Below, piece after piece: positions 12,495 through 55,500 of a stretch of 64,000 nt of DNA. Every line of letters starts with the position of its first letter. Position 1 is the first letter of the stretch. Below the pieces are notes generated by a model, which searched no databases, was not told the DNA's origin, and was given only the letters and a program-made list of their open reading frames with translations. The stretch lies in the NCBI GenBank assembly GCA_000091205.1, contig AP006499.2; one strand, given 5' to 3'. The DNA is from Cyanidioschyzon merolae (lineage: Eukaryota). The translations under genes and the position numbers were made by a program.

Positions 12495-13029
12495 ACGAAG
12501 GAAAAGCTATGGAAGAATTTGAGGTGTTCTCGGTGAAGCTGGTGCTTTCGGATGACCAATGCATGAGTGTGTGTGTGTTTGTTTTCGTAGAATGGTGCTC
12601 GTATGAGGGCAAGAGCAGCACCATGAACACGTTCCAGATGCAAGGCACGAACTCGGATCGCATGGACAATGCATCTGTATACTGCAGCATGATCATCTCG
12701 AAGTGGTAATCGAACGATGTTGACACGGTTGCAAACGCTAGAACGGCAACATCTCCTTTGCTTTTCTCGACGCACGTGCAGCGCCATGATGCCCATTGCG
12801 TATCTGACACCGCTTCCTCTGCTGCTTACTGTGCATCGTTTTCCGCACCATATGGACGACGCCGCTCGTAAGGCATTCGCGAGCGCCCGCGTAACTTGGA
12901 CGAGGGAATGCGTCCACCAAGCGCAAGCGCTCCCTACGACTCTGTTTAAATGCCGTTGCTTGGAATAACCGCACATGCCGACGAGGAATCGCGGCACTAG
13001 AGGCCCGTGTCGAAGCACGGTCTCGGTTT

Positions 13030-13985
13030 GCGTGCTCAATAGAAACGCAACAAACGTGCCTTTCTTTTTTTGTGCTGGCTTTCCAGAACGCGATCAGGTC
13101 TGTGCCGCTGTTCCCGGGAAAGCGCACATCCCATCTTTTCCTGGTATGAGAAACAGGAGTTTCGTGGTGATGCGAAACGCAACAAACGTGCCTTTCTTTT
13201 TTTGTGCTGGCTTTCCAGAACGCGATCAGGTCTGTGCCGCTGTTCCCGGGAAAGCACACATCCCATCTTTTCCTGGTATGAGAAACAAGAGTTTCGTGGT
13301 GATGCGAAACGCAACAAACGTGCCTTTCTTTTTTTGTGCTGGCTTTCCAGAACGCGATCAGGTCTGTGCCGCTGTTCCCGGGAAAGCACACATCCCATCT
13401 TTTCCTGGTATGAGAAACAGGAGTTTCGTGGTGATGCGAAACGCAACGAACATGCCTTTCTTTTTTTGTGCTGGCTTTCCAGAACGCGATCAGGTCTGTG
13501 CCGCTGTGCCCGGGAAAGCGCACATCCCATCGTTTCCTGGTATGAGAAACAGGAGTTTCGTGGTGATGCGAAACGCAACAAACATGCCTTTCTTTTTTCG
13601 CACTGGCTTTCCAGAACGCGATCAGGTCTGTGCCGCTGTTCCCGGGAAAGCACACATCCCATCGTTTCCTGGTATGAGAAACAGGAGTTTCGTGGTGATG
13701 CGAAACGCAACAAACATGCCTTTCTTTTTTTTGTGCTGGCTTTCCAGAACGCGATCAGGTCTGTGCAGCTGTTCCCGGGAAAGCGCACATCCCATCGTTT
13801 CCTGGTATGAGAAACAGGAGTTTCGTGGTGATGCGAAACGCAACAAACGTGCCTTTCTTTTTTCGCACTGGCTTTCCAGAACGCGATCAGGTCTGTGCCG
13901 CTGTTCCCGGGAAAGCACACATCCCATCTTTTCCTGGTATGAGAAACAGGAGTTTCGTGGTGATGCGAAACGCAACGGCCGCAAT
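13030..13985. repeat. 132-bp tandem satellite, ~7 copies
   Basis: Marker 'gaaacgcaacaaacgtgcctttc' recurs at 13042, 13174, 13306, 13438, 13570, 13702, 13835 and 13967, giving a period of 132 (=44 codons). Four overlapping long ORFs on both strands (12738-13655, 12975-14015, 13036-13920, 13070-13810) are periodicity artefacts. Confidence 0.9.
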
Positions 13986-15660
13986 ACGGCCTCTACCTCC
14001 ACCCGAACCAGATGAGAACGGGGTATTGCATTGCTCGCGCTGCTCCTGCCTTGAGATTTCTTACCGCCCGCTTCGTGGATATACAGCCTCTACATTTGCA
14101 ATCCATGACAAAGCACTTTCGTATACATATGGAGTTGTAGGAGTCTCGGTCATGTTTTCGGAGTGCTTGTGTCGATCCGTTGCCGCTCGGGATTCGTCGT
14201 GCCATCGGATTGGAGCGGATTCACGACGACCTCGAACACGACTTTGTAAAATCGTCGATGACGTCATCAGAGTCGGACGTGAAAAAATCCACGCTTTTCG
14301 ATTCCCTCAGTGCTCTATACGCAAACGACACACGCTTCAACTCGATCGTTCTGATTCAGGGCAATTCGTGGGCACGGCAATTCGTTCTGATGAATCGATG
14401 AGGAAAGAAAACTCGATGTCGTGCTTTGACGACTGGGTCACGAGCATATACCGAATGTTCATTGGGCTTCTCACGTCAATTCATCGATATCGTTCGAAAG
14501 AGAAATCCTCTTCTCTTTGTGGTCAACGATGAAGCGGCATTCTACAGCAGCAGCGTGAGACGTCTCAGAAGCTGCTCCCCGAGGCTTCCGTATCCTCTGT
14601 TTGCCTGGGTACGGGTCTTGGACGCAAACCAGAGTCACTACAGCGATCGATAGCTTTGGAGCGTGCGTCACCGCCTGGAACGACGAGCGTGCAGATGGGA
14701 CGAAATGTCTCGACTAGTTCCGCAACCTGGGTTTTCCATCGGCTGCCTGTTTCATCGATGAGCTAAATCGCTTTCTCCAATTCCGCAATCGAAACGAATC
14801 GCGCGCACTTGCATATGCAGCAGACAGCAAAGTCGCGGCGAGCATCGCTCAGAAGAAGCCCGTGATCTTCGGGTACAGCAGCGAGCGCGGAAACAGAACA
14901 GGGCATCCATCGGTGCCGTCAGCAACTTCCAAGGACGCGTGTGTCGAGCCGTGAAGCACGGGGTCACGCGCCTCAAGTCGGTGCTCGGAGAACAAAGTGT
15001 TGCGGGTGTGTATAGGAGCATCTGAGCGGCATCAAGCGTTACCGCTGCGAAGCGCGCTCAGAGACTCTAGACATAGATGATGAAATGAACAAGCGACATG
15101 CAGACTGCGACTTTTGCCTGTATATGTATCTTATCGTGAGCAACAACCGATAACTGCGAGCATGGGGCTTTCACGTTGCCATCAACGTCCTTCCACTGCT
15201 GGCAATGTAGCTGGAGGAACGGGAAAGACTTTCCTGTATTACGCCGGAGATAAAAGAACGGAAAGAAGCAAATCGACGAAAAACCGCGGAAAACCCTGTT
15301 CTAATTCCAGTCGCAGGAGACCCGAAACATAGTCCGTACGCCCAAGTTAGTCGACTTGACCCGTTCCATTTTATGCGAATATGGGTGTACACCAGCCTGA
15401 GCGCCCCAGAACAACAACAACAACAACGGCTTTTCTGCTGCGCCGATTTTCCAAAAGCATCCGGACTCTGTGGAACGATTTTTCGTGGAAACATGCGGAT
15501 ACCAGCATGAGCGAACATGCATGGACGTGCTGCTCACGGACTTGTACACACTGTGCTCGTCCTCGCTTCCCAGGATTCGCGTCACGATGCTTCCGCCTGT
15601 CACTGGCTGCGTAGTGCCCCACGTTACGCCCTGACGCTTACACGTCGCAGCTGCAGCAGG

Positions 15661-20679: not shown

Positions 20680-22189
20680 CAAGGTTGTTGCGAAACGCTC
20701 ACTGGCCGGGCGCTTCCTGTTCAGGCGGTTCAATGGTGAGCGGGGCAGTCGTCGCCAGGGCAGTGGCGATAGATTTCGAACCCCAATGCAAACGCATAGG
20801 GCGTGTATCTCAGTGAAATGCTATAGAAACCTGTATATTCCAAAGAAAAATCTGCGAAGCGTCGGAGTGATAAAGTGCATGCCGGGGACAAGCGCTGATC
20901 CGACGTACCCGTGGCATGCTCGGAATCGAGTCACGACTTGGTGATACCTTCCTGCGCACATCAGCGCACTTTTGCTTCACGGACGTACGCGAAGTACTGA
21001 TGAACGATGGAACAACATATGTTTCTACCGATTGCGCAGGAAAAATCGTAAACGATATATATATGGCGCTGCTATATTCATGGATTGCTGGACGGATCGT
21101 ACCAGTGCCTCGTTCGCGCGAGAATCGCATGACTTTACACCTCGCGACTGATTTTTACATCGCCAGACTTTCTGTTTTCAGCACCATGTCCATAAAGAGT
21201 ACTACACGAGTACCTCGCGAGCCCGCTCGACACAAGGCTGTTGGACGCTCCCGATGCACGAGACATTTCCGGATGTTGGTTGAGGCATACAGGTCTCCGT
21301 GCAGAATGCCTCTGCCTATGTTTGCCTGCGGAATCGCATCATTGCAAGACGCTCATTTTCGATTGCCTCGCCAGTTGGCGTTCGATCAGCTTACCGTTCA
21401 CCATCTCGTGCATGCGACTATTCACTACGCTCTTCTTCTGTGCACGGTTCAGCGTACAGCCATGCTTGTGCAGCTTGCGTATCGTCCTGAATATATCGAT
21501 GGAAATTGTCCGGCATGGATTGGTGCACTCTTTGGACGCTCTCGTTGAATGAGCAGGTGCGCATCCAGTTTGACAAGTGCTGTATTGGATGCACGGAACG
21601 TTCAGGATAAGCATGCGAAGAAGCGTGCTTCACTCATCGAAGGACTTTCGAATACCTGATTTGAACAAGTAAGGCCGTTTCATCCAATTACCATGAAACA
21701 TATCAGTTCCTTTCACCTCTTTTTCCAACCCACAAGATGCATTCCTTTTGTTGAACACATCCCAGATAAACACCCAAAAAAGTCCTAATGGTCTAGGCGT
21801 TCTAGAATTCACCACCCTAGTTATACCGACAATCACCATTTGCGTGTCCGTGCATCTTCGACGAGTCGCTCGCGGTATCGACCGCCCCATCCGCACCGCA
21901 GTTGCGCTGCAGCGTGCAACAGCGCATGCGATCCTGCATCAGCAGCTAGCCGCGAACCTGCATGGCACGCGGCATCCACGCCGCCGAGTCTCCAAAGCGT
22001 ACCAGGAACACGAAATCCCAATCCCGAAACCCGAACGGTCTGGTACGAAGAAAGCATCAATGCAGCTCCGCATGTCCATACCCATCGCACACATGAAGAA
22101 GCACACCAGGTACTGGAATGTAGCCTCTAGCAGAGCATCCCGGTATTGGGTGATCGTTCCCGCCCACGTTATCCCGGGATCTCGCTTCA

Positions 22190-22520
22190 ACGATGATTGT
22201 ACAAGCGAATCGCCCTCTTTAGAGCCCCTAAAGGTGGACGCTGTACAGATCGTCCTCTCCAGCGCACATGAAGGCTGCCGCTGTACAGATCGCCCTCTTC
22301 AGAGCCCCTAAAGGTGGACGCTGTACAGATCGTCCTCTCCAGCGCACATGAAGGCTGCCGCTGTACAGATCGCCCTCTTCAGAGCCCCTAAAGGTGGACG
22401 CTGTACAGATCGTCCTCTCCAGCGCACATGAAGGCTGCCGCTGTATAGATCGTCCTCTTCAGAGCCCCTAAAGGTGGACGCTGTACAGATCGTCCTCTCC
22501 AGCGCACATGAAGGCGGACA
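22190..22520. repeat. 80-bp tandem minisatellite x4 (each unit made of two ~40-bp sub-repeats)
   Basis: 'agcgcacatgaaggc' recurs at 22261, 22341, 22421 and 22501; 'ctgtacagatcg(t/c)cctct' sub-repeat. It lies ~130 bp upstream of the Pol X ATG. Confidence 0.85.
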
Positions 22521-22647
22521 TCGACGCGCATGCACCGAGGCGATCTCTCGCCAAATATCTCTGAGGGAAAACGAGAGGGCTCTCTACTGTACCTCAGGTG
22601 CGCGTGCCGCTACCAAGTCCGATTGAGTGGAGAAAGGCTCACTTGGA

Positions 22648-25994: not shown

Positions 25995-26861
25995 TCAGGG
26001 AATGAATACCGTTTTCGTAAGCCCGCCATACACTTTAATCAGCATATCGCCCGCCAGGTTCAGGATAAACACTGCGCCAACGGTGCGGATGCCTCGCGGC
26101 ACGAGTCCCGAAAAAAAGAAGCGGATACTTTGTTTCTCCTGGTACACTTTTCGAGCGGTTTGGAAGAAATTTCTATAACGCTTCCCGACATCCGGTGTTT
26201 CATTTGGATCGCCCGGGTGGGGAATATCTGCCTGCTGGATGGTCTTGATGGTATCCGCCCACTGCGAAGCGGACGCCGCAACAACCCCAGCGATGATGCC
26301 GCTGGATGCGAATGCGACCACGCCTGGTCCACCTGTTCGCGCCTCAATTTCGGCCCGAAGAACTGGAGCAAGCCCTAAATAACCCCCCGTGTAGATACCC
26401 TCTCGAATAGCGGTGGCGAGAAACCCCTTGTAGAGTCTGAACGGCCCCTGCCGAGCAACGTTCACGAACTCTGAAACGAGGGTTGTCCCGCGTTTTTGTT
26501 GCTGAATCATGACGAGTTCCGCGGGCGAACTTACCGTTGCGGAGAGCGCACCGCCAAAGCACGCCGCTGCAATCTTTTCCCCATTGGAGAGACCAGTGTC
26601 GGAGCCAGCGTCCGCGTGCCGCGCAGCAAAGAAGTTGCGACCAATGCCGGTCCCCGCAAACTGGATACCCGTGATCGGGGCAATGCTCGCTGCATTCACG
26701 AAGAGCCCTCTGTACCAGTGGCTTGGGCGAAAGACTATTTCAGCGCTCCGTTGAATTTGGTTCTTGAAATAAATTGTCGGTTGTTGAATGCAGAGTTCGA
26801 TGACACCGGCCAAGGCGCCGATGCCAACGAGCTCACCCGGTCGTAGTTTTCGTTCCTGCAT
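25995..26861 (-). CDS. Mitochondrial carrier (SLC25)-like protein, divergent signature motifs
   Basis: 288 aa, the right size for a carrier. It shows a tripartite ~95-aa repeat organisation with degenerate Px[DE]xx[KR] motifs (PTIYFK, PAELVM, WADTIK) and a GLVPRGIRTVGAVFILNLAGDML C-terminus. The ATG at 26859-26861 is confirmed. Confidence 0.5.
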   Translation of the reverse strand: MQERKLRPGELVGIGALAGVIELCIQQPTIYFKNQIQRSAEIVFRPSHWYRGLFVNAASIAPITGIQFAGTGIGRNFFAARHADAGSDTGLSNGEKIAAACFGGALSATVSSPAELVMIQQQKRGTTLVSEFVNVARQGPFRLYKGFLATAIREGIYTGGYLGLAPVLRAEIEARTGGPGVVAFASSGIIAGVVAASASQWADTIKTIQQADIPHPGDPNETPDVGKRYRNFFQTARKVYQEKQSIRFFFSGLVPRGIRTVGAVFILNLAGDMLIKVYGGLTKTVFIP

Positions 26862-29120
26862 GCTCTACCAAAGCCGCAGCCTCCACCAATAACGTACAGA
26901 ATGAAAACGTAGTCCCAGAAACGTTCGAGCGCCTCTGGAACCCCGACTTGTCCACAAGGCGCTGCTCGTGCTCGTGGCGTGCACCCCAGTGGTGCAGCGT
27001 CCGGGCACCACGCAGGCAACGCTACGTGTCCATGCACGCATCGATCGCACGTATCGATCGATTGATCGATCGATGCGCAGCGGCGGCTAGAGGCGCTCAG
27101 CGGCCGCCGCTGCCGCCTGTGCATCCGGTCCGGTGCCGGGGTGAGCACGACGCGCCTGCTCGAGCGCGAAGCGGCAGCGGCTCTTCGCATGCAGTGCCTG
27201 TTCGTTGTAGCGAGGTTTGTTCTGGGTCGGCGTTGGGTCATTCGACGAAATGCTCTCCGACGCACGGGCGCTGGTCGTTGGCGATACATGAATACGAGCT
27301 GGATGGAGAAAGGAATAGCGGCATCGGGCTGAGCGCTGGGAAGCGGCGCGTCGATGCGTGCGTGCGCTGCTGCGCTCTTTTCCCTGATCTGCGCGGGCGA
27401 TGTGTGTCTCTGGCGTTTCCGCATCGATGCAGCAGGGATCCGAATAGTGATCTGAGCGTCGCTTTCTCGGTTATCCTATGACTGCGAAAAAGTGTCGAGC
27501 GCGGAATTTGCGGTCGACTGCAGCATCGACGGAGCGGATACGACGCCCGCTCCCTGGCGACGTCGATTTGGGGCGCTGGCAACCGCGGTGGCCAGCGGGG
27601 CTGTTCACACCCAGCGGTATGCGAGCGCTGAGGTGTCGCGCAGAACGGTTGACCGTCTCCATGGCGACGCTACTGAGACACCATGCGCAATAGCCGGTGT
27701 GACATGAAGTGCCGGATGCGATCACGCGGCTTTGCTGGACGATTTCGGATGCTTCTCGTAATCGAGCGGCATGCTTTCCGAATCACTGAGAAAGCGCGCT
27801 TCCGGGGCTTCGAACACGCATCGCGCTCCGCTGATGCATCTGGAGAACCCGGCACTGTGGTCAGCTCGAGGTCGGAAAATGTGCTGCTCGGCTTCGCCGG
27901 CTGGGAAACGGAATCGCATCGACACGAAGTGTGAAGAAGACGCTGTCTGCGTTCTCTCGTTGCAAGACAGCTGAGCGTTGTGTTCAGCGGTGCCCTGGTG
28001 CCCAGCAGCGCAACCGCGTCCATCTATGCGACGTTTCACCAATGACAGCCACGTGCATGAGCACTCGCACCTGACACATCGTTAACGTTCTGAAAACAGC
28101 ACCGATGCGACCGCCCCCGTCTGCTTCTGGCCAAGGAGCGCTCCCGACGTACAGTTAAGGAGGTCGCGAACGGTGTGTGCGGCACGCGCCGGTTGCGTCA
28201 CACCGGTACGTTCCGAGCGAGCGGTTCCCCCACACGCAGCCGCAGAACGCTAAACCATCCTCTGGACCCCAAAACGCTGGTGCAAAGAGCCGCCCCCAGC
28301 CAAGTACCCTGTCTATGTGGAAGGCATTTCGCACTGGTGCATGCGCCTCGCCCACCTGTGCATCGCGTGGGCGCGCGGCGAGCATTGCGGCGAGCGCAAA
28401 TGCAGGATACCGGGAGATAATTGCAACATGGGCGACGCCCAGACGCAGCTTAACTGCCCCTAGTCCCAGAATACAATGCGTTGCGGACGATTTGCGCAGC
28501 TCACGTAGCAGTACCTGCCACTGCAGAGTCGAACGGGTGACGAGCCTGGCAGACTGCTCCGGCTCGCGGGACCTTTCGCGTGGAAGGAAAACTTTCTAGA
28601 ATACGAAAAGCTTTTCCCCTTTCAAAGTATATCACAGAAGGGGAAAGCAATACATATACATGCCGGTGAATCCAGAGTCTATGTGCGTTAATCTAAATAG
28701 CGCGCGCTAGATACGCGCATCACGAGATCTGGCTGGCACGAGATACGATGCGCATGTCGCCGTTGAAGAGAAAAGCGATTCCGATCAGAAGCGTGTTCTA
28801 CCGGAACAAGTTGGATTTCCGTTGGAGTTTTACAAAAGAGCAGTTTTTTCATTTCATTTGGTCTTCAACCCTCAAACAAGTCTAGTAAAGTGTTTTTTCG
28901 CAGTATATGACAGAAGCGTTCGAAGAGCGTTGTTTTTCAAAAAAACTAAAAAATGAAAGCTATGAAAAAGCAAGTCGACGATCCTGGAGGCTCAGTGTGG
29001 CTGGCTGCCAGAAAAAAAAAACAATAAACATTACCGAGTCCAGAAGAAAAGGAAGAGAAAAAGAACCGAAAGGGGGAGGCTCTACGTCGAAGGCCGCAAG
29101 AAAGACGACAGTACGACGAG

Positions 29121-29879
29121 ATGGTGGTGAAAACCTTTCTTCTTGGACATACCAAGGATCCCTGCAGGGAAAAGTTGCGAGACGCTGTCGAAAAACGTGT
29201 CGACTCTTACTTCAGGAATATTGTGAAGGCGTCGTCAGGACTGATGCATTTGGCGAGGGAGATGTATCGCGACGTGACGCACATGGAAACGGTCAAGATT
29301 CCGGACAAGTTCTTCGACAAGACCTTTATTCGACACCTCATGCTTGGTACAGAGGAAGCGCGGAGGGAAAATGAGCGGGTGCACGTCCTCCACGGAAAAC
29401 ACTCCTTTTACAGCTTTAATGGTACTCGATACAAGGGTGACCGGGATATGTACGACTATGGGGCGATGAAGTACCTCACGAACCTGAAGAACCATCTGAT
29501 CGTGAACCTCGAACGTTTCATGATACGCGCCGTAGTTGCACTCTACCCGGACCTGTCTCGCCAAGGAATATGGGCGATTATCAATGGCATCACGAAAGAT
29601 CGCAGGCGTGAAGACGAGGTCGAATTTGTCGAGAAGAAGGAGTCAAACGAGAGCACGAATGAGGATTCTGTAATCCGTGCGGCTATGAAAGAGCATCGTG
29701 CGGTACTGGGGTTGGCGAATTCAGCAGAAAAGATATCAGCGTTGAAAAAAGATGAGGGAAGATCCTATCGCCTCATTCTGGGATATTTTGTGTTCCTGGA
29801 CCGAGAACTGGGACGCGAGGCAGAGATGAAACTGGGTGAGGAAAAAATGAAGCGTGGGAGAGACGGAAGGCTTTCCTAA
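29121..29879 (+). CDS. Fanzor/TnpB-like protein, N-terminal segment (copy A)
   Basis: 252-aa ORF (ATG confirmed), 96 % identical to copy-B ORF 53486-54244. It lies upstream of and co-oriented with the RuvC segments. Confidence 0.45.
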   Translation: MVVKTFLLGHTKDPCREKLRDAVEKRVDSYFRNIVKASSGLMHLAREMYRDVTHMETVKIPDKFFDKTFIRHLMLGTEEARRENERVHVLHGKHSFYSFNGTRYKGDRDMYDYGAMKYLTNLKNHLIVNLERFMIRAVVALYPDLSRQGIWAIINGITKDRRREDEVEFVEKKESNESTNEDSVIRAAMKEHRAVLGLANSAEKISALKKDEGRSYRLILGYFVFLDRELGREAEMKLGEEKMKRGRDGRLS

Positions 29880-30091
29880 TGGGGAAGCGCTTCAACGGCG
29901 TTCCAATGTGCAACATCAGTTCACATTTTGTGACTATCGACTCCAGAATCCTTTACGGCATCATGTAGGAGATCAGTCCGGAGTTCAGTGTCAGCAGGGA
30001 GGAGTTCTCCGCTGAGAAGCGGGAGACGCACTGGAAGAACATCTTCAATTTCAAACTTCTCAAAGTCAGCAAACAAAAGGTATTCACTGGA

Positions 30092-30658
30092 ATGATCGAA
30101 ACCGATGGAGTAGCCACGTGTGTACACTATCGGCGCTTGAAGGCAGATCGTCCAGTTCTGTGTTCAATATTGTCCGTAACGAAGCATGAAGATGAGAAGG
30201 AGGCGTATCCTGCGACGCAGAAAGTGCAGAATAACGACTTTGTCGTTGGCGCGGACCCCGGAACCACAAATATCGCAACCATCGCAGCACCCAAGCGTGC
30301 GGAAGATGGTACTGACGGCAACCTACGTCGGAAAGACGTGCGTCTTTTGAGGCTCTCGAGAGCAAGATACTATCGAGAATCGGGAATCATGAATGCAAGG
30401 AAGAAAATTGAGGCATGGAATGCAGGAATGAAAGAGCACCTGGAAGCCTTGAGTGAGATGACGAGCCGCGGAGCGGACTTTGAAGCTTTTCGGAAATTCA
30501 TGGAAGTTCGTGTTGCTCATTGGGATGCGCTGTGGGAAGAGTATACAAATCCCCGGTGCGCTCGTCTGCGAATGAATCTGTATTGTGGGAAGCGGCGCGC
30601 GTTCGCGAATTTTTTAATGAGTGCCTTGAAGGAGAATGAAAGTCAGGGCTCGTGGTAG
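30092..30658 (+). CDS. Fanzor/TnpB-like protein, RuvC-I segment (copy A)
   Basis: ...[19 protein letters not shown]... matches the TnpB RuvC-I catalytic Asp motif (cf. IGIDLGxxxxA). 188 aa, 96 % identical to copy-B ORF 52707-53273. Confidence 0.6.
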
Positions 30659-31033
30659 CGTACGGAGCAGGGCGCCGGAGGATACAAAAAGGGTGTACAC
30701 CAGCTCCAACGGCAAGAACGTACATGGAGTGTGCACGGCGTTTTGTTACAATACCTGTAGATGAGTTTCGAACATCGTATACACACCATGAGCTGGGTTG
30801 TACACTTCAGAGAGTGGAGATGGAAAAGTGCCACCGGAGCCCTGAAGATATAAAAAAGTATGGACGGCTGACGGAAGAGCAAATGGAAAGGACGTCGAAA
30901 GTTCGTGGACTCCTTGCATTAGTAAGTACAACCAATGATGGAAAGAAGCGTATGGAGTTTGTGAATCGTGACTTTGATGCCGCTATCAATATCAGGAAAT
31001 GTGCGGTGATGGAGCATAGACCTCCAGAGTGGA
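30640..31033 (+). CDS. Fanzor/TnpB-like protein, zinc-finger-like plus RuvC-III segment (copy A), in -1 frame relative to the preceding segment
   Basis: ...VTIPVDEFRTSYTHHELGC...CHRS...MEFVNRDFDAAINIRKCAVME matches the TnpB C-terminal pattern (V..V.E.YTS.xC ... DRDxNAAxNI). The frame opens at 30640 and overlaps the end of the RuvC-I ORF by ~16 nt. The homologous copy-B ORF stops ~13 codons after NAAINI; copy A lacks that stop and reads through to 31395, which is artefactual. Confidence 0.55.
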
Positions 31034-31241
31034 CAAGAGTGAATTTTGTTGGACAACCTCTCAAAGTCGAACTATATGAGAAAAAGTTGGAAGCAGTATT
31101 CGGTAGACTGTTCAAAAAAACTGGGAGGCATCTGCACGTCAGTTGGCGACGTCTCGTCCAAGGCGCGGTTGCCGCCACTACTGTACACGCCCGACGTCGT
31201 TCGACTTTCGAGCGGCGTTTGGCCGGTGTCACCTCTAATCC

Positions 31242-34200
31242 ATGTCAGGAGTGGAACTCCCAGAAGCAGAGACGAGGTCAGTTCTTTCCGATGCGATTCA
31301 AGTGGCGGTTCGTGTTCGTCCTATTCTTCCGAAAGAAGCAGAGACTAGGGGTGCGGCTGAGACCTGGCGCGCTGTACCTCACGCAGGTCAAGTGATCCGC
31401 GTTGGCCGGCTTCCCACGGGTGCCGGAGGCACGACGACCTGCCCGACTGTCTTCTCGTATGATTTCGTGTTCGGTAAGGAGTCCACCAACGTAGAAGTCT
31501 ACGAAAAGGTGGCGAGGCCTCTGGTTGAAAGCGCTCTAGTTGGTTACAATGGCACCGTCTTTGCCTATGGGCAGACGTCTTCCGGGAAAACGCACACCAT
31601 GTGGGGCAGCGAGGCGGATCCCGGTGTCATGCGTCGGGCTGTACGTGACCTCTTCGAGCTTGCGCGCCGAACGCCTCAGCGAGAGTTCCTCATTCGGGTG
31701 TCTTACCTGGAGATCTACAACGAGACTATCAGAGATCTGCTGCATTCGAACCCAGCCGTGACCAATGTCCGGGTTCTTGAGGATAGCGATGGTCGCATCT
31801 GCACCGATGCGCGAGAGGAAATCGTTGTCACTGCTGAGCAAGTCTGTGAGTTGCTCAAGAATGGCGAGGCGAAGCGTATGACCGGAGCAACGGACATGAA
31901 TGAGCGAAGTTCTCGCTCGCACACGATCCTGACACTAGTGATTGAGAGCAGGGAGCGCGCTGCGGAAGACTCAACCTCTGGGGATGCCGAAGACTCGTCA
32001 TCCGCGAGCGATTCCGCTGTGCGAACCGCAACGCTCACACTCGTCGACCTGGCCGGATCAGAGCGCCAGAAGGACGCCAAGTCCGAAGGTTTACGTTTGA
32101 AGGAGGGTGGCTACATCAACAAATCCTTGTTGACATTGGGCACTGTCATTCACAAGCTCTCGGAGGGAGGCAGTGCCCATGTACCTTATCGCGATTCGAA
32201 ACTCACGCGAATGCTGCAGAGCTCCCTCGGTGGCAACTCTCGAACCGCGGTTATCTGCGCAATTACGCCGGCTGCAGCGCACGCTGAGGAGACGCTGTCG
32301 ACCCTCAAATTCGCAACACGAGCCAAGAGTGTGCAAAACCGTGCCCAGCAGAACGAGGTGCTCGATGATCGAGCCCTGTTGAAACGTTACCAACAGGAGA
32401 TCGCCAGTCTGCGTGCACAGCTAGCGAAACTGCAACAGGGAGATCTAAGCAAACAAGGATGCCCAAACGACTTTGTTCGTGCTCTTGAGCAGAACGCTGC
32501 AGAAGCGGAACGCGAGCGTGAGCGTATCCGTTCTCAGCTAGAGGAAGCGGAGAACAGGCGTCGCCTCTACGAGGAGAAACTGGAGCGCTTGACGCGTTTG
32601 ATATTGAACTCGCCAGCTCCTGCGCCGAAGGTGCGGTCGCGGGTCTCCGTGTCGACGGCGTCCTTGTCGAGTCCTCACTCGGACACGAACGAAAACAAGG
32701 ACGTGGCTTCGCCCGGCGCGTTTGCTTACGAGCCTCGAACACCGCCAGCTGCTGAACCACAGCTTGATCAGCGCTTGACGAGAACGTTTCGAACGCTGCG
32801 ACGGCGGACGCTTGGTGGTAGCGTCGATGGCATTGGGAGCGATGCCCAAGGCTTACTTAACTCGCCCGAGAATCATATCGTGGAGCAGGTTCGAACACTT
32901 CAGCGACGAGTTGAGGCACTAGATGTGGCCCGATGGCGCGAACAGTCAGCCTCATTGAAGGCAGTCTCCTACGAACGTGAGCGTGCTGCGCAGCTGCAAC
33001 AACGTCTGCGTTCGCTCGAGTCGCAGATGCTTCGCCACACCTGCGCCGAAGTTGCCAACGAAGCGCTGCACAAAGCTGCGCTCGCAGCTGTCGATGTGCG
33101 GCTTGCTCAGATCCAGCAGTTGATGCAAAGCGAGCGGAATCGAATGCAACAGCTGCATTGTGAACTTGAACACGTTCGACAAGTCTGCGCAACCAAGCAA
33201 TCCCGACTCGAGATACTCGAACGAGAACTCGGTGAAGCGCGCAGAGAAATCGACGAACTACGCCAGCGTGAAAGAGCTGGATTTACTCAAACGCAAGCGA
33301 AGACTTTTGATCATCTACGCAATCGCGTTGCCGATCTCGAAGCGAAACTTCGTTCGCAACTCGCACTACGGCAACAAGTGGAGGCCTCGCGAGGCGGAGT
33401 CGAACGTGAACTGCGCAAATTGGAGCGCCAGAATCGAGCACTGGAAAAGGAGCTCGCCAAGCTCCGCGAACAGCGCGAACGAATCGAGCAGGCGAAGCTC
33501 ACGGTAGCGCAAGCGGAACAACTTCGCAATGCGTCAGAACAAGCGCAACGCCAAGTGCAAGCTGAGCGGGATGCGCTGCAGCGCCAGTTGAACGAACTCG
33601 AAAACGCCCACACACGCCTTCTCGCTGAGCGTGATACCTTGCTGGAGTACCGGGAGCGGCACCAGCAGGCCCTCGAGCAGCTGGAATGCGCCCAGCAGCG
33701 GATCGCGGATCTCGAAGCGCGATCTGTGCGCTCCGCTGACTGGGAAGCGCGCTGCGAATCGCTCTCCGGGCAACTCGAGGATGCCAGGCAGCGTATTGCT
33801 GCTTTGGAATCGCAGATCGAAACCAATGCCCAGGAATTGGCTTCATTACTGGACCAGGCAACAGATGCTCATCTGCAGCTAGAGGCGGTGCGATCCCAGG
33901 CTCGCGCTAGTGAGCGTTTGCAGGAACAGGTGACGGCGCAGGTGCGTGCAGAGCTGAACGCCCTGGCGGCCAGTCATGAAAAAGAGAGCGCCGAGTGGAA
34001 ACGCATGCGACTGGACACCGAGACGGAACGAGATGCGCTTCGTTCCCAGCTCGCTGACCATAAGCGTTCGCTCGAGGAGCTGCGTCTTGAATGCGCTAAG
34101 CTCGAGTCACGGGCAGCGAAGCTTCTCCAGGAAACCGCGAAGCATATCGAAGAGAAGCATCGTCTCCTCGAGACTGTGCATGCGCGCGATCGACGCATTA

Positions 34201-34769
34201 CCGACCTTGAAAGTCGCCTCCGCGAGTGTGTCGAAGGAGGTGGTCGCTATGCGCGTCTCTGTCGACTTGTTGAAAAGCGCGAAGCAGAGCTGACTCGCGC
34301 CCGCGAAACTCTGCGGCTGCTGGAGGAGCGTCTTGTCGCCGAAGGGCGCTCTGCAGAGTTCTGTGACCTCCATGCGAGTGCGCAGCATGAGGCCGAGCGC
34401 TTGAGCTTTGAGAAGGAGCTTGCTCGCTCCAAAGAAAAAAGCGACAAGATGCAGCAAGAACGACAACAGCTGTTACTCGAGAACAGCAAATTGCGTGACG
34501 TAGTCAAGCACAAGGACCGACAGCTTCTGAGTCTGCAGGCTAAGCTGAAGCACGCCGAGGCAACCATCTTGTCGCAGCGCGGCAATGCGAGTCTTCCTGA
34601 ACAGGGCACCGTCTCAGACATTTCCATGGGGGCAGGTGCCGCTCCTGCATGTGTAACTCAAAGTGCTCCTGGCGCTCAAGATTCCAATAACAAGGAGAAT
34701 TTGGGATGCGAACAGGATTCGGAACGTGCTGCTGCTCAGCTGTTCGGATCGCTCGACGACAACAAGTAG
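31242..34769 (+). CDS. Kinesin motor protein with N-terminal motor and ~800-aa coiled-coil tail (kinesin-7/CENP-E-like)
   Basis: GQTSSGKTHTM P-loop, SSRSH switch I and LVDLAGSE switch II. The motor region is similar to CENP-E (FAYGQTxSGKT...), followed by a long heptad-rich tail. The ATG at 31242 is confirmed. Confidence 0.85.
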   Translation: MSGVELPEAETRSVLSDAIQVAVRVRPILPKEAETRGAAETWRAVPHAGQVIRVGRLPTGAGGTTTCPTVFSYDFVFGKESTNVEVYEKVARPLVESALVGYNGTVFAYGQTSSGKTHTMWGSEADPGVMRRAVRDLFELARRTPQREFLIRVSYLEIYNETIRDLLHSNPAVTNVRVLEDSDGRICTDAREEIVVTAEQVCELLKNGEAKRMTGATDMNERSSRSHTILTLVIESRERAAEDSTSGDAEDSSSASDSAVRTATLTLVDLAGSERQKDAKSEGLRLKEGGYINKSLLTLGTVIHKLSEGGSAHVPYRDSKLTRMLQSSLGGNSRTAVICAITPAAAHAEETLSTLKFATRAKSVQNRAQQNEVLDDRALLKRYQQEIASLRAQLAKLQQGDLSKQGCPNDFVRALEQNAAEAERERERIRSQLEEAENRRRLYEEKLERLTRLILNSPAPAPKVRSRVSVSTASLSSPHSDTNENKDVASPGAFAYEPRTPPAAEPQLDQRLTRTFRTLRRRTLGGSVDGIGSDAQGLLNSPENHIVEQVRTLQRRVEALDVARWREQSASLKAVSYERERAAQLQQRLRSLESQMLRHTCAEVANEALHKAALAAVDVRLAQIQQLMQSERNRMQQLHCELEHVRQVCATKQSRLEILERELGEARREIDELRQRERAGFTQTQAKTFDHLRNRVADLEAKLRSQLALRQQVEASRGGVERELRKLERQNRALEKELAKLREQRERIEQAKLTVAQAEQLRNASEQAQRQVQAERDALQRQLNELENAHTRLLAERDTLLEYRERHQQALEQLECAQQRIADLEARSVRSADWEARCESLSGQLEDARQRIAALESQIETNAQELASLLDQATDAHLQLEAVRSQARASERLQEQVTAQVRAELNALAASHEKESAEWKRMRLDTETERDALRSQLADHKRSLEELRLECAKLESRAAKLLQETAKHIEEKHRLLETVHARDRRITDLESRLRECVEGGGRYARLCRLVEKREAELTRARETLRLLEERLVAEGRSAEFCDLHASAQHEAERLSFEKELARSKEKSDKMQQERQQLLLENSKLRDVVKHKDRQLLSLQAKLKHAEATILSQRGNASLPEQGTVSDISMGAGAAPACVTQSAPGAQDSNNKENLGCEQDSERAAAQLFGSLDDNK

Positions 34770-50368: not shown

Positions 50369-51862
50369 CTATTCAACAGACAGGTTCACATCGAAAGAGC
50401 CCTCGAATGCGCAGATATGGGGCAGCGCTTTTCGGACAAGTTCCAGTTCTCGACGTAGTTGCTCAAGCGTCGGGCGTTCGACGAGCTTCACCGTCTTCAC
50501 GAGTGCGTCCTGTAGCCAGTATCTGCGCACGGCGTGTGCGGCGTCGCGCTCGCTCACTGAATCGCCAAGAACGAGGAGGTTCAGATTGGCCGGGTAATTT
50601 GGATGTCTCTCAAGCTCTGCCCTGAATGCCTGCGTTTTCCAGTCCGATGGCGAGTGCGGAAAATCTGACTCGTAAATGCTTCGGGCAGAAATGATACGAA
50701 TATCGCTCGAGTCGAGATGTTGCAAAACTCGTGGCATGAAGCGGGCCGCTGAAAGTTGCACCCAACCAGTTTCCGCATTGGTAATGACACATACGCGGCC
50801 ATATTGTTGGGCGTCATCCAAAATACCAATGACGAGATCTTCTAGTGCATCCAGATTTGCGACAAGTTCCTGCGGTAACGATTCCGTGTCATCTACGCGG
50901 AAACCTAAAGTTGAGAGCCACGTCGACGAGAGCAGCGTATCGTCCCAGTCGAAAAGCATGATCGTGCAATCAGGAGCACAGATTCGCCTCGCCTGCTCCC
51001 GCTGGGTCGCGAACCCAGGGCTGTTTCGGTCGTGGTGCTCAATTTTCAAACCATTTTCCGGGACGTCCAGAAGCGACCATTCCGCGCACCTCCGTGAAAA
51101 GGAATCGGAAGGTTCGGGCGCGGTCACACGCTGGCGCTGCCATGATTCGCCGCACGTCAAATCTACACCATGGACGACAGGTGCACTGCTACTAGCACCG
51201 TCTACGTCGCCAGAGGTAAACTCCGCCGCGACTCCAGAGGACAGCATCCAGCTTCGATCATTTTTCCTAGTTTCTGTACAAACATGTACTGCAAATCGGT
51301 TGTTGTCGAAGCTCTCATACGAATCTGGTTCACATAACATTCTCAGCGAGTCCCTGGGCAGCATCTCGTCCCCGTCTGAGACAGTGCGGGAGAACGACTC
51401 TGCCGCAACGGTTGATGCGGTATCAGGTTCTGATTCGGACTCCGAATCACTCAGGTACCCAGGTAGGGCGTCGTCCTCCGGGACGAAGCGCCCTGCGAGC
51501 GAAAAGCGCACGAAAGGGGTATTTTCCTTTTCAGAGTCGCCCAAACCCTCAGATTCCGAAGCAAAGAGACTCTGCTCGTCACGCCAGGACTTGGCCGTGG
51601 AGGATGACGAGTTCGCGTGATCCTCGGCGGCGCTGATCGATAGCGAGTCTTCCGGTACCTCGGTTTCCACGGACATACTCGAGGTGTCGTCGGGTGTCAA
51701 CGAAGGACAGAAGTTCACTCGAACTGTTAGCGTCTCTTGATCCGAGGAGCTGCTCCGATCCAAGACAGAAAGGCGTCGACCTCGTTGGCGTGCGCCGCAA
51801 CCGTCTCGAAGAGTTCGAAGTCTGTTACGCTGTGAAGCTATTGAACCAGCAACTGCTCCCAT
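50369..51862 (-). CDS. HAD-superfamily phosphatase-like domain protein (DxDxT motif) with acidic Ser-rich N-terminal half
   Basis: C-terminal domain ...IMLFDWDDTLLSS...VCVITNAETGWV...LVLGDSVSE. The FDWDDTL motif is the HAD catalytic motif I and resembles Eya-type WDLDETI. The track start at 51865 is TTG; the ATG is at 51860-51862. Confidence 0.45.
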   Translation of the reverse strand: MGAVAGSIASQRNRLRTLRDGCGARQRGRRLSVLDRSSSSDQETLTVRVNFCPSLTPDDTSSMSVETEVPEDSLSISAAEDHANSSSSTAKSWRDEQSLFASESEGLGDSEKENTPFVRFSLAGRFVPEDDALPGYLSDSESESEPDTASTVAAESFSRTVSDGDEMLPRDSLRMLCEPDSYESFDNNRFAVHVCTETRKNDRSWMLSSGVAAEFTSGDVDGASSSAPVVHGVDLTCGESWQRQRVTAPEPSDSFSRRCAEWSLLDVPENGLKIEHHDRNSPGFATQREQARRICAPDCTIMLFDWDDTLLSSTWLSTLGFRVDDTESLPQELVANLDALEDLVIGILDDAQQYGRVCVITNAETGWVQLSAARFMPRVLQHLDSSDIRIISARSIYESDFPHSPSDWKTQAFRAELERHPNYPANLNLLVLGDSVSERDAAHAVRRYWLQDALVKTVKLVERPTLEQLRRELELVRKALPHICAFEGSFDVNLSVE

Positions 51863-52338
51863 CAAACCTGACAGAGCCCACCCTCTATACGTACAACAGA
51901 TAAATCTAGTCCGTTCACGGACGAGAAGACCGTTCCGGCTACGCTTTCCGTTTCGCTGCAGACGTCTCCGTGCGCGCTTTTCAGAGTTGTCACAATCGCC
52001 AGCTCACTGCGTCGATAAATACCACGAACACAAACCACAGTGTGACCAGGAGCCAGTCAGAAACCAGACAAGCGCTGTGGAGTCCAAGAAAAACGAAGTT
52101 CCCACAACGCTCGTCGAGGCCTCACCTAGAACACCCCTGAAGACAAACGTCTTTGAAAAGGAGAACGCTGTCGCCGGCGGTGTACAGCAGTGGCGGCAAA
52201 CGGGTCCTAGACAAATCGTCCCCAACTGATGGGCAGACACCTCGCCGTCTTTCTCGACCGGTCACCCACTACTGGTTTCAACTTTTTCTCATATAGTTCC
52301 ACTTTGGAAGATTGTCCAATTAAGTTTTCTCTTGTCAG

Positions 52339-52722
52339 TTATGGAAGTCTTCTTTCCATCACCGCACATCTGCTTATATTGATAGCGGCATTAAAGTCAC
52401 GGTTCACGAATTCCATACGTTTCTTCCCGTTGACTGTACTTACTAATGCAAGGGGTCCACGAACTTTCGACATCCTTTCCATTTGCTCTTCCGTCAGCGG
52501 TCCATACTTTTTTATACCTTCAGGGCTCCGGTGGCACTTTTCCATCTCCACTCTCTGCAGTGTACAACCCAGCTCATGGTGTGTATACGATGTTCGAAAC
52601 TCATCTACAGGTATTGTAACAAAACGCCGTGCACACTCCATGTACGTTCTTGCCGTTGGAGCTGGTGTACACCCTTTTTGTATCCTCCGGCGCCCTGCTC
52701 CGTACGCTACCACGAGCCCTGA
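52339..52722 (-). CDS. Fanzor/TnpB-like zinc-finger-like/RuvC-III segment (copy B), with native-looking stop 13 codons after NAAINI
   Basis: ...EFVNRDFNAAINISRCAVMERRLP*. It shows the same -1 frame offset relative to the RuvC-I segment as in copy A. Confidence 0.55.
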   Translation of the reverse strand, partial: SGLVVAYGAGRRRIQKGCTPAPTARTYMECARRFVTIPVDEFRTSYTHHELGCTLQRVEMEKCHRSPEGIKKYGPLTEEQMERMSKVRGPLALVSTVNGKKRMEFVNRDFNAAINISRCAVMERRLP

Positions 52723-53273
52723 CTTTCATTCTCCTTCAAGGCACTCATTAAAAAATTCGCGAACGCGCGCCGCTTCCCACAATACAGATTCATTCGCAGA
52801 CGAGCGCACCGGGGATTTGTATACTCTTCCCACAGCGCATCCCAATGAGCAACACGAACTTCCATGAATTTCCGAAAAGCTTCCAAGTCCGCTCCGCGGC
52901 TCGTCACCTCACTCAAAGCTTCCAGGTGATCCTTCATTCCTGCATTCCATGCCTCAATTTTCTTCCTTGCATTCATGATTCCCGATTCTCGATAGTATCT
53001 TGCTCTCGAGAGCCTCAAAAGACGCATGTCTTTCCGACGTAAGTTGCCGTCAGTACCATCTTCCGCACGCTTGGGTGCTGCGATGGTTGCGATATTTGTG
53101 TTTCCGGGGTCCGCGCCAACGACAAAGTCGTTATTCTGCACTTTCTGCGTCGCAGGATACGCCTCCTTCTCATCTTCATGCTTCGTTACGGACAATATTG
53201 AAGACGGCACTGGACGATCTGCCTTCAAGCGCCGATAGTGTACACACGTGGCTACTCCATCGGTTTCGATCAT
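52707..53273 (-). CDS. Fanzor/TnpB-like RuvC-I segment (copy B)
   Basis: 188 aa with 7 substitutions relative to copy A. The Ruv[20 protein letters not shown] motif is retained. Confidence 0.6.
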
Positions 53274-53485
53274 TCCAGTGAATACCTTTTGTTTGCTGAC
53301 TTTGAGAAGTTTGAAATTGAAGATGTTCTTCCAGTGCGTCTCCCGCTTATCAGCGGAGAACTCCTCCCTGCTGACACTGAACTCCGGACTGATCTCCTAC
53401 ATGATGCCGTAAAGGATTCTGGAGTCGATAGTCACAAAATGTGACCTGATGTTGCACATTGGAACGCCGTTGAAGCGCTTCCCCA

Positions 53486-54244
53486 TTAGGAAAGCCTTCC
53501 GTCTCTCCCACGCTTCATTTTTTCCTCACCCAGTTTCATCTCTGCCTCGCGTCCCAGTTCTCGGTCCAGGAACACAAAATATCGCAGAATGAGGCGATAG
53601 GATCTTCCCTCATCTTTTTTCAACGCTGATATCTTTTCTGCTGAATTCGCCAACCCCAGTGCCGCACGATGCTCTTTCATAGCCGCACGGATTACAGAAT
53701 CCTCATTCGTGCTCTCATTTGACTCCTTCTTCTCGACAAATTCGACCTCATCTTCACGCTTGCGATCTTTCGTGATGCCATTGATAATCGCCCATATTCC
53801 TTTACGAGACAGGTCCGGGTAGAGTGCAACTACGGCGCGTATCATGAAACGTTCGAGGTTCACGATCAGATGGTTCTTCAGGTTCGTGAGGTACTTCATC
53901 GCCCCATAGTCGTACATATCCCGGTCACCCTTGTATCGAGTACCATTAAAGCTGTAAAAGGAGTGTTTTTCGTGGAGGACGTGCACCCGCTCATTTTCCC
54001 TCCGCGCTTCCTCTGTACCAAGCATCAGGTATCGAATAAAGGTCTTGTCGAAGAACTTGTCCGGAATCTTGACCGTTTCCATTTGCGTCACGTCGCGATA
54101 CGTCTCCCTCGCCAAATGCATCAGTCCTGACGACGCCTTCACAATATTCCTGAAGTAAGAGTCGACACGTTTTTCGACAGCGTCTCGCAACTTTTCCCTG
54201 CAGGGATCCTTGATATGTCCAAGAAGAAAGGCTTTCACCACCAT
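53486..54244 (-). CDS. Fanzor/TnpB-like N-terminal segment (copy B)
   Basis: 252 aa with 10 substitutions relative to copy A. Confidence 0.45.
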   Translation of the reverse strand: MVVKAFLLGHIKDPCREKLRDAVEKRVDSYFRNIVKASSGLMHLARETYRDVTQMETVKIPDKFFDKTFIRYLMLGTEEARRENERVHVLHEKHSFYSFNGTRYKGDRDMYDYGAMKYLTNLKNHLIVNLERFMIRAVVALYPDLSRKGIWAIINGITKDRKREDEVEFVEKKESNESTNEDSVIRAAMKEHRAALGLANSAEKISALKKDEGRSYRLILRYFVFLDRELGREAEMKLGEEKMKRGRDGRLS

Positions 54245-55269
54245 CTCGTCGTACTGTCGTCTTTCTTGCGGCCTTCGACGTAGAGCCTCCCCCTTTCGGT
54301 TCTTTTTCTCTTCCTTTTCTTCTGGACTCGGTAATGTTTATTGTTTTTTTTTCTGGCAGCCAGCCACACTGAGCCTCCAGGATCGTCGACTTGCTTTTTC
54401 ATAGCCTTCATTTTTTAGTTTTTTTGAAAAAGAACGCTCTTTGAACGCTTCTGTCATATACTGCGAAAAAACACTTTACTAGACTTGTTTGAGGTTTGAG
54501 GCACAAATGAAATGAAAAACTGCTTTTTTGTGAAACTCCAACGGAAATCCAACTTGTTCCGGTAGTACACGCTTCTGATCAGAATCGCTTTTCTCTTCAA
54601 CGGCGACATGCGCGTCTTGTCAGTTGACTGCCCGATCTCCCTGATGCGCTCACCGAGCGGGATTCTTTTTTCATTGACAAGACGTTTACTTAGGCCAGCG
54701 TTCTCCGACTGTGCGCTTTTTCTTTTCTTTCTTTTTTTATTTGGTTTTCTGCGCGCGTTGAAGTATCCATCAAACACCCTACTCCCAAGTCACATTACCT
54801 AAACTTCTTCTCGGATTTTCTGGTCGTTTCATGCGTTCTATCACACACCTAATGCCTGCCCTAGTCATCCGCAATAGCGTCTTTACCTTCGGTACAGTTG
54901 CATCACGGAGACAGAACGGCGTTGCCGTACCACAGAGGGCGTCCGTTCGAACTGGGGTACGGATCATACGTGGATCGCGGCGAACGGGGTTGTGACCGGG
55001 TTCTTTGTGCGTCGCTCGAATGTGCGTTTCCTCCAATGCCCTGTAGCTGCTGGTTCAGAAGCATTCGGTTCTGGTCTTTGAATTCAGCTCCGACTTTGGA
55101 TTACATGAGAGAGCGTCAATTTTCGTGTAGGTCATACCTATTTTCAGCTTTGGTGCGGACGCGTGCACGAACGTCACGCTTTCCAACGACTACATGGAGC
55201 CCCGAGCCGTTGGGAACGATCCCAACACGACGAGCTCCGCCGCTCGAGAATACATCGGAAACGATGGTG

Positions 55270-55500
55270 CACTGCATCCACATGGAACACGAGCCGCAGT
55301 CGAAGCGTGTCCCTGCTCTGTGCCCAAGAGTGCACTGATCTAGGGCAACTCCAATATTCAATGTACCGTTTTCAAATGCACTGCATCCACATGGAACACG
55401 AGCCGCAGTCGAAGCGTGTCCCTGCTCTGTGCCCAAGAGTGCACTGATCTAGGGCAACTCCAATATTCAATGTACCGTTTTCAAATGCACTGCAAGCGCC
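55270..55500. repeat. 109-bp tandem duplication (2.1 copies)
   Basis: 'cactgcatccacatggaacacgagccgcagtcgaagcgtgtccctgctctgtgcccaagagtgcactgatctagggcaactccaatattcaatgtaccgttttcaaatg' appears at 55270 and 55379, with a partial third start at 55488. It lies ~330 bp upstream of the lipoyl synthase ATG. Confidence 0.85.

Follow-up and report, generated by a model that had tools for sequence, protein, structure and literature searches.

Two copies of a Fanzor1 transposable element, here called A and B, lie in inverted orientation and 21 kb apart on one chromosome of the red alga Cyanidioschyzon merolae 10D, within the window analysed here (64,000 nucleotides [nt] of contig AP006499.2, assembly GCA_000091205.1). 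The copies were detected by repeat finding and pairwise alignment. The stretch at 30990-31260, in which the original prediction had placed a candidate scaffold for a guide RNA (omega RNA, also called fRNA), is probably the right-hand end of copy A, a member of the family CMe-1A. It would then consist of the RuvC-III motif, a C-terminal tail, a mutated stop codon, and a non-coding tail of about 60 nt; the same reading takes both copies as dead, the break in identity between them as the edge of a gene-conversion tract, and the end of the gene together with the tail as a right-end module. On this analysis the locus appears to hold two dead copies of a known transposon family and an ordinary conversion edge, with a candidate guide-RNA or right-end module that is well defined but unproven.

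The analysis corrects a misleading reading, in which the sharp break in identity between the copies marks the boundary of an RNA module rather than, as proposed here, an edge of gene conversion. It also gives a precise description of the right end (limit of coding constraint, 16-nt motif, hairpin, and exact end) for an uncharacterised Fanzor1 family of an extremophile red alga, and this description is a basis for designing a guide-RNA test with an intact family member. The kinesin gene next to copy A has lost all of its own upstream sequence except 20 nt. The elements and the third catalytic motif of copy A are as follows.

28703-31221, + strand: core of copy A, Fanzor1 (CMe-1A / DUF8286); pseudogene, frameshifted near 29845 and near 30650, in-frame TAG at 29966
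52145-54663, - strand: core of copy B, same family; same frameshifts and in-frame stop as copy A
28386-28702, + strand: 5' module of copy A, class II; present in a subset of family copies and non-homologous to the 5' module of copy B
54664-54950, - strand: 5' module of copy B, class III; present at other loci too, in both orientations
30964-30993, + strand: RuvC-III motif NRDFDAAINI, with the third catalytic Asp of the D-E-D triad

Family membership and decay of the two copies

The reconstructed protein of copy A, used alone, has no direct match in Pfam, NCBIfam, or PDB, and a shallow profile of nine sequences found no match in PDB either. Only a deeper profile succeeded: built from 35 diverse relatives, with P0001 as its first row (an intact homologue 67% identical to the reconstructed copy A protein), it matches the solved Fanzor1 structures from Parasitella (9cf0, E = 3.9e-25), Spizellomyces (8gkh, E = 1.2e-17), and Guillardia (9cer, E = 4.8e-12). 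Across the 35 relatives the Asp of GADPG and the Glu of VDEFRT, the first two residues of the D-E-D triad, are invariant, while the Asp of NRDxNAAxNI is found in at least 90%. The catalytic Glu is in the relocated Fanzor1 'DEFRT' position, and all three RuvC motifs are found in the translations of both A and B. Because of the profile matches to solved Fanzor1 proteins and the conserved catalytic triad, the family can be assigned to Fanzor1 by sequence; the Fanzor-like nature that had been proposed for the elements was thereby borne out. The Cas12f1-like TNB/zinc-ribbon domain PF07282 is matched by nine of the 35 relatives (best E = 9.6e-11), with weak scores for P0001 (E = 0.23) and P0068 (E = 0.0012) and none for the reconstructed copy A protein. 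Close homologues number 68, labelled PF26935 DUF8286 in the collection, and there are 2987 cluster representatives at E <= 1e-3. The C. merolae elements show no transposase gene; P0068, a distant relative (33% identical), lies directly downstream of a DDE_3 (Tc1/mariner-type) transposase gene (L095:126-1022, L096:3-884).

A single Fanzor1 family, CMe-1A, has been described for C. merolae (Bao and Jurka 2013, PMC3627910). Its copies, about 150 in number, match the consensus at about 80% identity, and only some of them are intact; the element is about 3 kb long, has no terminal inverted repeats, has undetermined target duplications, and has a 5' part in common with another repeat (PMC3627910). 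Copies A and B fit this published description, the match being to the description and not to the Repbase consensus. The CMe-1A paper does not include a 3' non-coding module, the spacing between right ends and host genes, or gene conversion between copies (PMC3627910). The 5' modules that precede the family core fall into at least three unrelated classes, some of which occur elsewhere in either orientation, and the core itself opens with a GC-rich hairpin, GCGCTCGGTGAGCGC (about 28707-28723 in copy A).

Both copies are dead pseudogenes. Three reading frames and an in-frame TAG are needed to read the protein in each, with the lesions at identical positions, and neither copy can therefore make its own nuclease. 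Introns were considered as the cause of the frame changes and rejected, the first frameshift being a one-base loss in a run of A and no usable splice sites being present near the TAG. Contigs from hot-spring metagenomes have the arrangement of element and kinesin as well, with about 99% identity.

The identity break and gene conversion

The original prediction had reported a fall in identity between the two copies at 31020, over the putative scaffold. The fall is real, but a maximum-likelihood change point on the A-B alignment places it 90 nt further 5', at 30931 (log-likelihood ratio 91), identity being 98.3% left of this point and 75.6% in the final 291 nt. This position falls within the RuvC-III coding region, and a mirror-image break is present at the left end, where identity between A and B climbs from 66% to 97.8% at 28750. 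From 30700 to 30930 A and B are 97.8% identical, compared with a family mean pairwise identity of 85%; from 30931 to 31221 they are 74% identical, compared with a family mean of 76%. Since identity between A and B in the tail equals the family background, the near-identical body is the anomaly and not the tail, and the break is uninformative about the scaffold.

28750-30930, + strand: proposed gene-conversion tract in copy A, 97.8-98.3% identical to copy B (about 54613-52435), with family background on both sides
30931-31221, + strand: unconverted 3' segment of copy A, 75.6% identical to copy B and 98-100% identical to orthologues in other strains

Strain L086 (Ga0506617_00124) carries the same insertion ahead of the same kinesin. 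In the tail it agrees with copy A at 98-100%, and in the part corresponding to 30073-30872 its identity to A and to B alike is 96-100%, while that corresponding to 28780-30072 is only about 83% identical to A and to B. This orthologue (1295-2575) keeps a 426-amino acid (aa) DUF8286 open frame that in the 10D copy is broken into pieces of 252 aa and 188 aa, so the lesions of 10D appear to have been imported by gene conversion. Strain L085 has additional small conversion patches; because of these and of the partial tract in L086, ectopic exchange between A and B seems to have happened more than once. As judged from these alignments, the comparisons show that ectopic gene conversion produced the 2.2 kb of near-identity between two inverted copies that are old and diverged, and that 30931 is where the conversion tract stopped and not a feature of a guide RNA. 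The pattern is like that of other ectopic (interlocus) gene conversion in having a tract of near-identity with background divergence on both sides, inverted copies 21 kb apart, and a length that varies among strains. Nothing about it is unusual, and its 3' edge coincides with a hypervariable, indel-containing stretch of the family (30925-30940).

The 98% identity over 2.2 kb, with frameshifts and an in-frame stop in common, could also suggest that A or B is a recent transposition product of the other whose tail then diverged quickly, but hardly any probability attaches to this. Local acceleration cannot account for about 70 substitutions in 291 nt beside a divergence of about 2%; in addition, A and B have unrelated 5' modules, and each tail is about as near to other family members as to the partner copy. 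The recent-transposition reading is refuted by tails at the family background together with the 98-100% conservation of the copy A tail between strains.

It is also quite improbable that the copies have different 3' modules, representing two types of guide-RNA scaffold, with the break as a functional boundary between modules, as the original prediction had suggested. Two variants of the terminal hairpin do exist in the family, CGTCGTTCGA...TCGAACGGCG in A and GCGTTTTTCTTTTGAAAGGCG in B-like copies, which pair in different registers, and the B-like subgroup has about 16 more common bases beyond the hairpin. However, the break lies inside the RuvC-III coding region and not at the start of the non-coding module, it has its symmetrical counterpart at the left end, and the divergence of the tails is no greater than the family background. 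In L086, moreover, a tract of another length is found at the same locus, and the same tail occurs with an unconverted body, a finding of the kind that refutes this reading.

The right-end module and its possible roles

The right ends were mapped by blastn of copies A and B against 80 other family loci, all from metagenomes. Homology ends at 31217-31222 in A and at 52143-52146 in B, extending to about 52128 in the B-like subgroup; the ends first proposed (about 31212 and about 52145) were correct to a few bases, the present values being about 31221 and about 52145. When the loci are anchored on the hairpin, information content reveals weak conservation from +1 to +8 and about 0 from +9.

For the end of the open reading frame (ORF), the frame was traced from NAAINI in 46 non-redundant family copies, and two recurrent stop positions were found. 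A TAG directly follows '...RPPE' in nine of the 46 (the equivalent of 31030-31032 in the window), while a stop after '...WRRFV', 61 codons on, occurs at exactly that codon in ten of the 46 and within two codons in a few more. The RPPE TAG sits a few residues before the end of the solved Fanzor1 proteins; other copies continue for 43 more codons. Copies with this TAG may form a subfamily, mark a mutational hotspot, or encode a short form that is functional. The solved proteins end just after RPxxxxR, which corresponds to 31021-31050, and the sequence beyond it is therefore a family-specific extension. It had been proposed that copy B keeps a stop lost from copy A. The TAA of B is instead a private nonsense codon, although the frame of A does read on, to 31395, because its family stop is mutated to CAA; copy A has neither of the two family stops. 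Its last frame (30652-31395) crosses the right end and overlaps the first 51 kinesin codons in another frame, an overlap that is a by-product of decay and not a fusion.

31051-31104, + strand: C-terminal extension VNFVGQPLKVELYEKKLE, family-specific, with codon periodicity kept
31159-31161, + strand: position of the family's usual stop (TAG) in copy A, mutated to CAA; frame open to 31395
52339-52341, - strand: private premature TAA of copy B in '...RRLP*', one codon before the RPPE stop position and unique to B
52207-52209, - strand: family-typical TAG of copy B after ...WGRFV; second stop position retained

Diversity among family copies at the three codon positions changes along this region, as listed here for positions 1, 2, and 3.

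30700-30930: 0.10, 0.08, and 0.26
30931-31050: 0.15, 0.15, and 0.27
31051-31104: 0.15, 0.10, and 0.26
31105-31158, + strand: 0.21, 0.19, and 0.23; last 18 codons of the ORF, without codon periodicity and a candidate overlap of ORF and scaffold

Because codon periodicity is lost in the last 18 codons, selection appears to act at the protein level to about 31104 and at the nucleotide level beyond it. Overall diversity is 0.33 in the tail after the stop and 0.70 in the flank. The conserved non-coding tail is about 60 nt long and consists of a stem, the single-stranded motif CGCCACTACTGTACAC, a variable linker, and a terminal hairpin, with a sharp right end; the hairpin occurs as two sequence variants in the family, each of which still pairs.

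31159-31181, + strand: stem 1 (family UAG-GGCGsG ... CsCGCC-A-CUA, which includes the stop codon); in copy A GGCG/CGCC, 31162-31165 with 31173-31176
31173-31188, + strand: motif CGCCACTACTGTACAC, 16 nt and nearly invariant, with per-site diversity mostly <= 0.1; the most conserved non-coding motif of the family
31193-31219, + strand: terminal hairpin with core CGTCGTTCGA / TCGAGCGGCG and loop CTT, of 10-12 base pairs (bp), 12 bp including G-U; the element ends a few bases later
31222-31241, + strand: unique flank from the right end to the kinesin ATG; putative position of the guide segment if an omega RNA is made, with weak conservation from +1 to +8
52148-52195, - strand: tail of copy B, with motif CGCCACTGCTGTACAC (52180-52195) and a degenerate terminal hairpin (52148-52170)

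The last 18 codons and the tail may be regarded as the right-end module of the family. In intact members this module would most likely encode the scaffold of an omega RNA (fRNA), with the guide read from the flank, and it may double as the DNA end that is recognised in transposition. Any such RNA from copies A or B would depend on an intact copy elsewhere for its nuclease. Of the scaffold proposed at the 3' end by the original prediction, what stands is a conserved non-coding module, which shares sequence with the end of the ORF and does not extend past the right end, unrelated flank lying beyond it; covariation was not found. When tails from 32 copies were compared with dinucleotide shuffles, they folded better than the shuffles on average (mean z = -1.41; z = -2.3 for the tail of A), a result that is only suggestive as the sequences are related.

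Several results weigh against this interpretation. The tail of copy B, which is degraded, folds no better than shuffles (z = +0.1), and the RNAalifold consensus is weak (-6 kcal/mol), with a covariation term of about 0. Three candidate helices were examined (stem 1, the terminal hairpin, and a long-range CAGUAGU/ACUACUG helix); pairing is found in 79-91% of cells, with covariation no greater than in shuffles, and in a closing helix between linker and flank pairing within the same copy is no better than pairing across copies (p = 0.27). An Rfam scan of 30800-31400 returned chance-level matches only. The tail after the stop is overall about as variable as third codon positions, and constraint is thus limited to the motifs. 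With 5' modules that vary, the left end, and hence any target-adjacent motif, is not definable. For the conversion itself, four exact-protein look-ups for orthologues of copy B, which would have indicated its direction, gave none.

Among characterised systems, the omega RNA of GtFz1 overlaps the last 17 codons of its gene (Saito et al. 2023, PMC10432273). The present module is like the omega RNAs of SpuFz1 and GtFz1 in that the flank just beyond it is variable and the candidate scaffold overlaps the last 17-18 codons, as in GtFz1 (PMC10432273), and the protein profile of the family matches the solved SpuFz1 and GtFz1 proteins. Unlike those systems, it has no inverted repeat at its end, no covariation, and copies in the window that are pseudogenes. 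The 3' flanks of the distant relatives L094 and L095 have no recognisable similarity to the tail, the ends of these elements not being definable from single sequences.

The right end of IS200/IS605 elements combines the roles of a DNA hairpin and a guide RNA. The right-end RNA of TnpB in this group (ISDra2) resembles the module described here in having a scaffold that overlaps the 3' end of the nuclease gene and holds a subterminal hairpin, with neither inverted repeats nor target duplications. Unlike ISDra2, the present family has a eukaryotic host and a catalytic Glu in the relocated Fanzor1 position, and no TnpA-like gene was seen.

The conserved tail may also be a transposon end at the DNA level only, for example a subterminal hairpin bound in trans by an HUH-type transposase, and have no RNA role, which is possible although rather doubtful. 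It is favoured by the strong hairpin a few bases from a sharp 3' end, by the lack of terminal inverted repeats and of detectable target duplications in the family (PMC3627910), and by the variable 5' regions. Hairpins at the ends are typical of Rep/HUH transposons (PMC10288648), a kind that includes IS200/IS605, Helitron, and Replitron. However, no transposase gene is seen in the element, and several of the hairpin pairs are G-T in DNA, making them better suited to RNA. Constraint at the nucleotide level also reaches about 55 nt into the ORF, and in the Fanzor and TnpB systems that have been studied the same region encodes the guide RNA as well. The DNA-end and RNA roles are not mutually exclusive. 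No Replitron proteins are reported from red algae (PMC10288648).

Complementarity to CGCCACTACTGTACAC is also found about 1 kb upstream of that motif, within copy A: GTGTACACTATCGGCG at 30120-30135 (53230-53245 in copy B) is complementary to it at 13 of 16 positions. By chance a window would contain about 0.4 matches of this kind.

Host genes, insertion history, and other features of the window

The genes around the two copies are the following.

31242-34769, + strand: CENP-E-like kinesin of 1175 aa, identical to XP_005538301.1 (C. merolae 10D)
25995-26861, - strand: mitochondrial-carrier gene, conserved divergent neighbour of the kinesin; 87% identical to the carrier beside the kinesin in Cyanidiococcus and a related metagenomic lineage
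50369-51862, - strand: 497-aa ORF downstream of copy B and oriented like it; ATG 282 nt from the right end

The kinesin ATG at 31242 is 20 nt past the right end of copy A, in agreement with the distance of at most 30 bp given in the original prediction. No other start would work, because the next Met is inside the motor domain, which begins 18 codons further on. For copy B, the predicted ORF in the same orientation is present with its ATG at 51862; its 'HAD-like' label was not verified, the 497-aa ORF having no Pfam match at E <= 1e-5.

In Cyanidiococcus yangmingshanensis and a related metagenomic lineage the carrier and kinesin genes are syntenic, 835-1267 bp apart (835 bp in Cyanidiococcus), and no Fanzor homology is found between them in either. 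An exact empty site was not recovered, the intergenic DNA of Cyanidiococcus being too diverged to align. Since Cyanidiococcus has the synteny without the insertion, the element entered after the split of the two genera. The ancestral upstream region of the kinesin is now 2.8 kb away and only 20 nt of it are left at the gene, from which it is inferred that transcription of the kinesin starts within, or reads through, the 3' end of the element.

Closeness to host genes was surveyed for right ends only, at 24 metagenomic family loci with a flanking ORF of at least 250 aa. Such an ORF lies within 125 bp of the right end at 15 of the 24, with 16 starts in the same orientation and eight convergent 3' ends. 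Five flanking ORFs are ordinary host genes according to Pfam (FtsZ, CCT, a methionine aminopeptidase-type M24 peptidase, a carboxyltransferase, and phosphoglucomutase). A distance of at most 125 bp would arise by chance with a probability of about 0.1 as estimated from the intergenic gaps of the window and about 0.27 from gaps within the loci, and the binomial tails for 15 of 24 are 7e-6 at a null of 0.2 and 1e-3 at a null of 0.3; these null models are crude. Within that limit, abutting genes are a tendency of the family and not a peculiarity of copies A and B, which extends the closeness of 3' ends to host genes that the original prediction had noted for these two.

This closeness bears on two further readings of the module. 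In the first, which is unlikely, the tail belongs to the Fanzor mRNA as its 3' untranslated region or poly(A) signal, or else is an outward promoter that has been retained for use by host genes. The right end only 20 nt from the kinesin ATG, the 15 of 24 loci with a host ORF within 125 bp, and the UGUA within the conserved motif are in its favour. However, one third of the adjacent genes are convergent, with the 3' end towards the element, and the 16:8 bias in orientation is not significant (p = 0.15). The conservation, moreover, is seen across about 46 copies, most of them dead, and mirrors master elements and not host use. CUGUACAC was considered as a poly(A) signal and rejected, TGTA not being enriched downstream of 57 host stop codons. 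In the second, the right-end module serves as a promoter or 5' leader that is portable and reads outward, with the family preferentially inserted or retained beside host genes; there is little expectation that this is so. If it were true, transcription of an essential CENP-E-like kinesin would depend on the end of a dead transposon, and the same RNA start could once have served a guide RNA.

Other repeats are also present in the window. Eight tandem copies of a 132-bp unit at 12896-14120 lie inside a 346-aa ORF (12975-14015), and seven tandem copies of a 40-bp unit at 22169-22555 alternate between 76% and 98-99% identity. A perfect tandem duplication of 109 bp is found at 55268-55485, about 300 bp beyond the 5' module of copy B.

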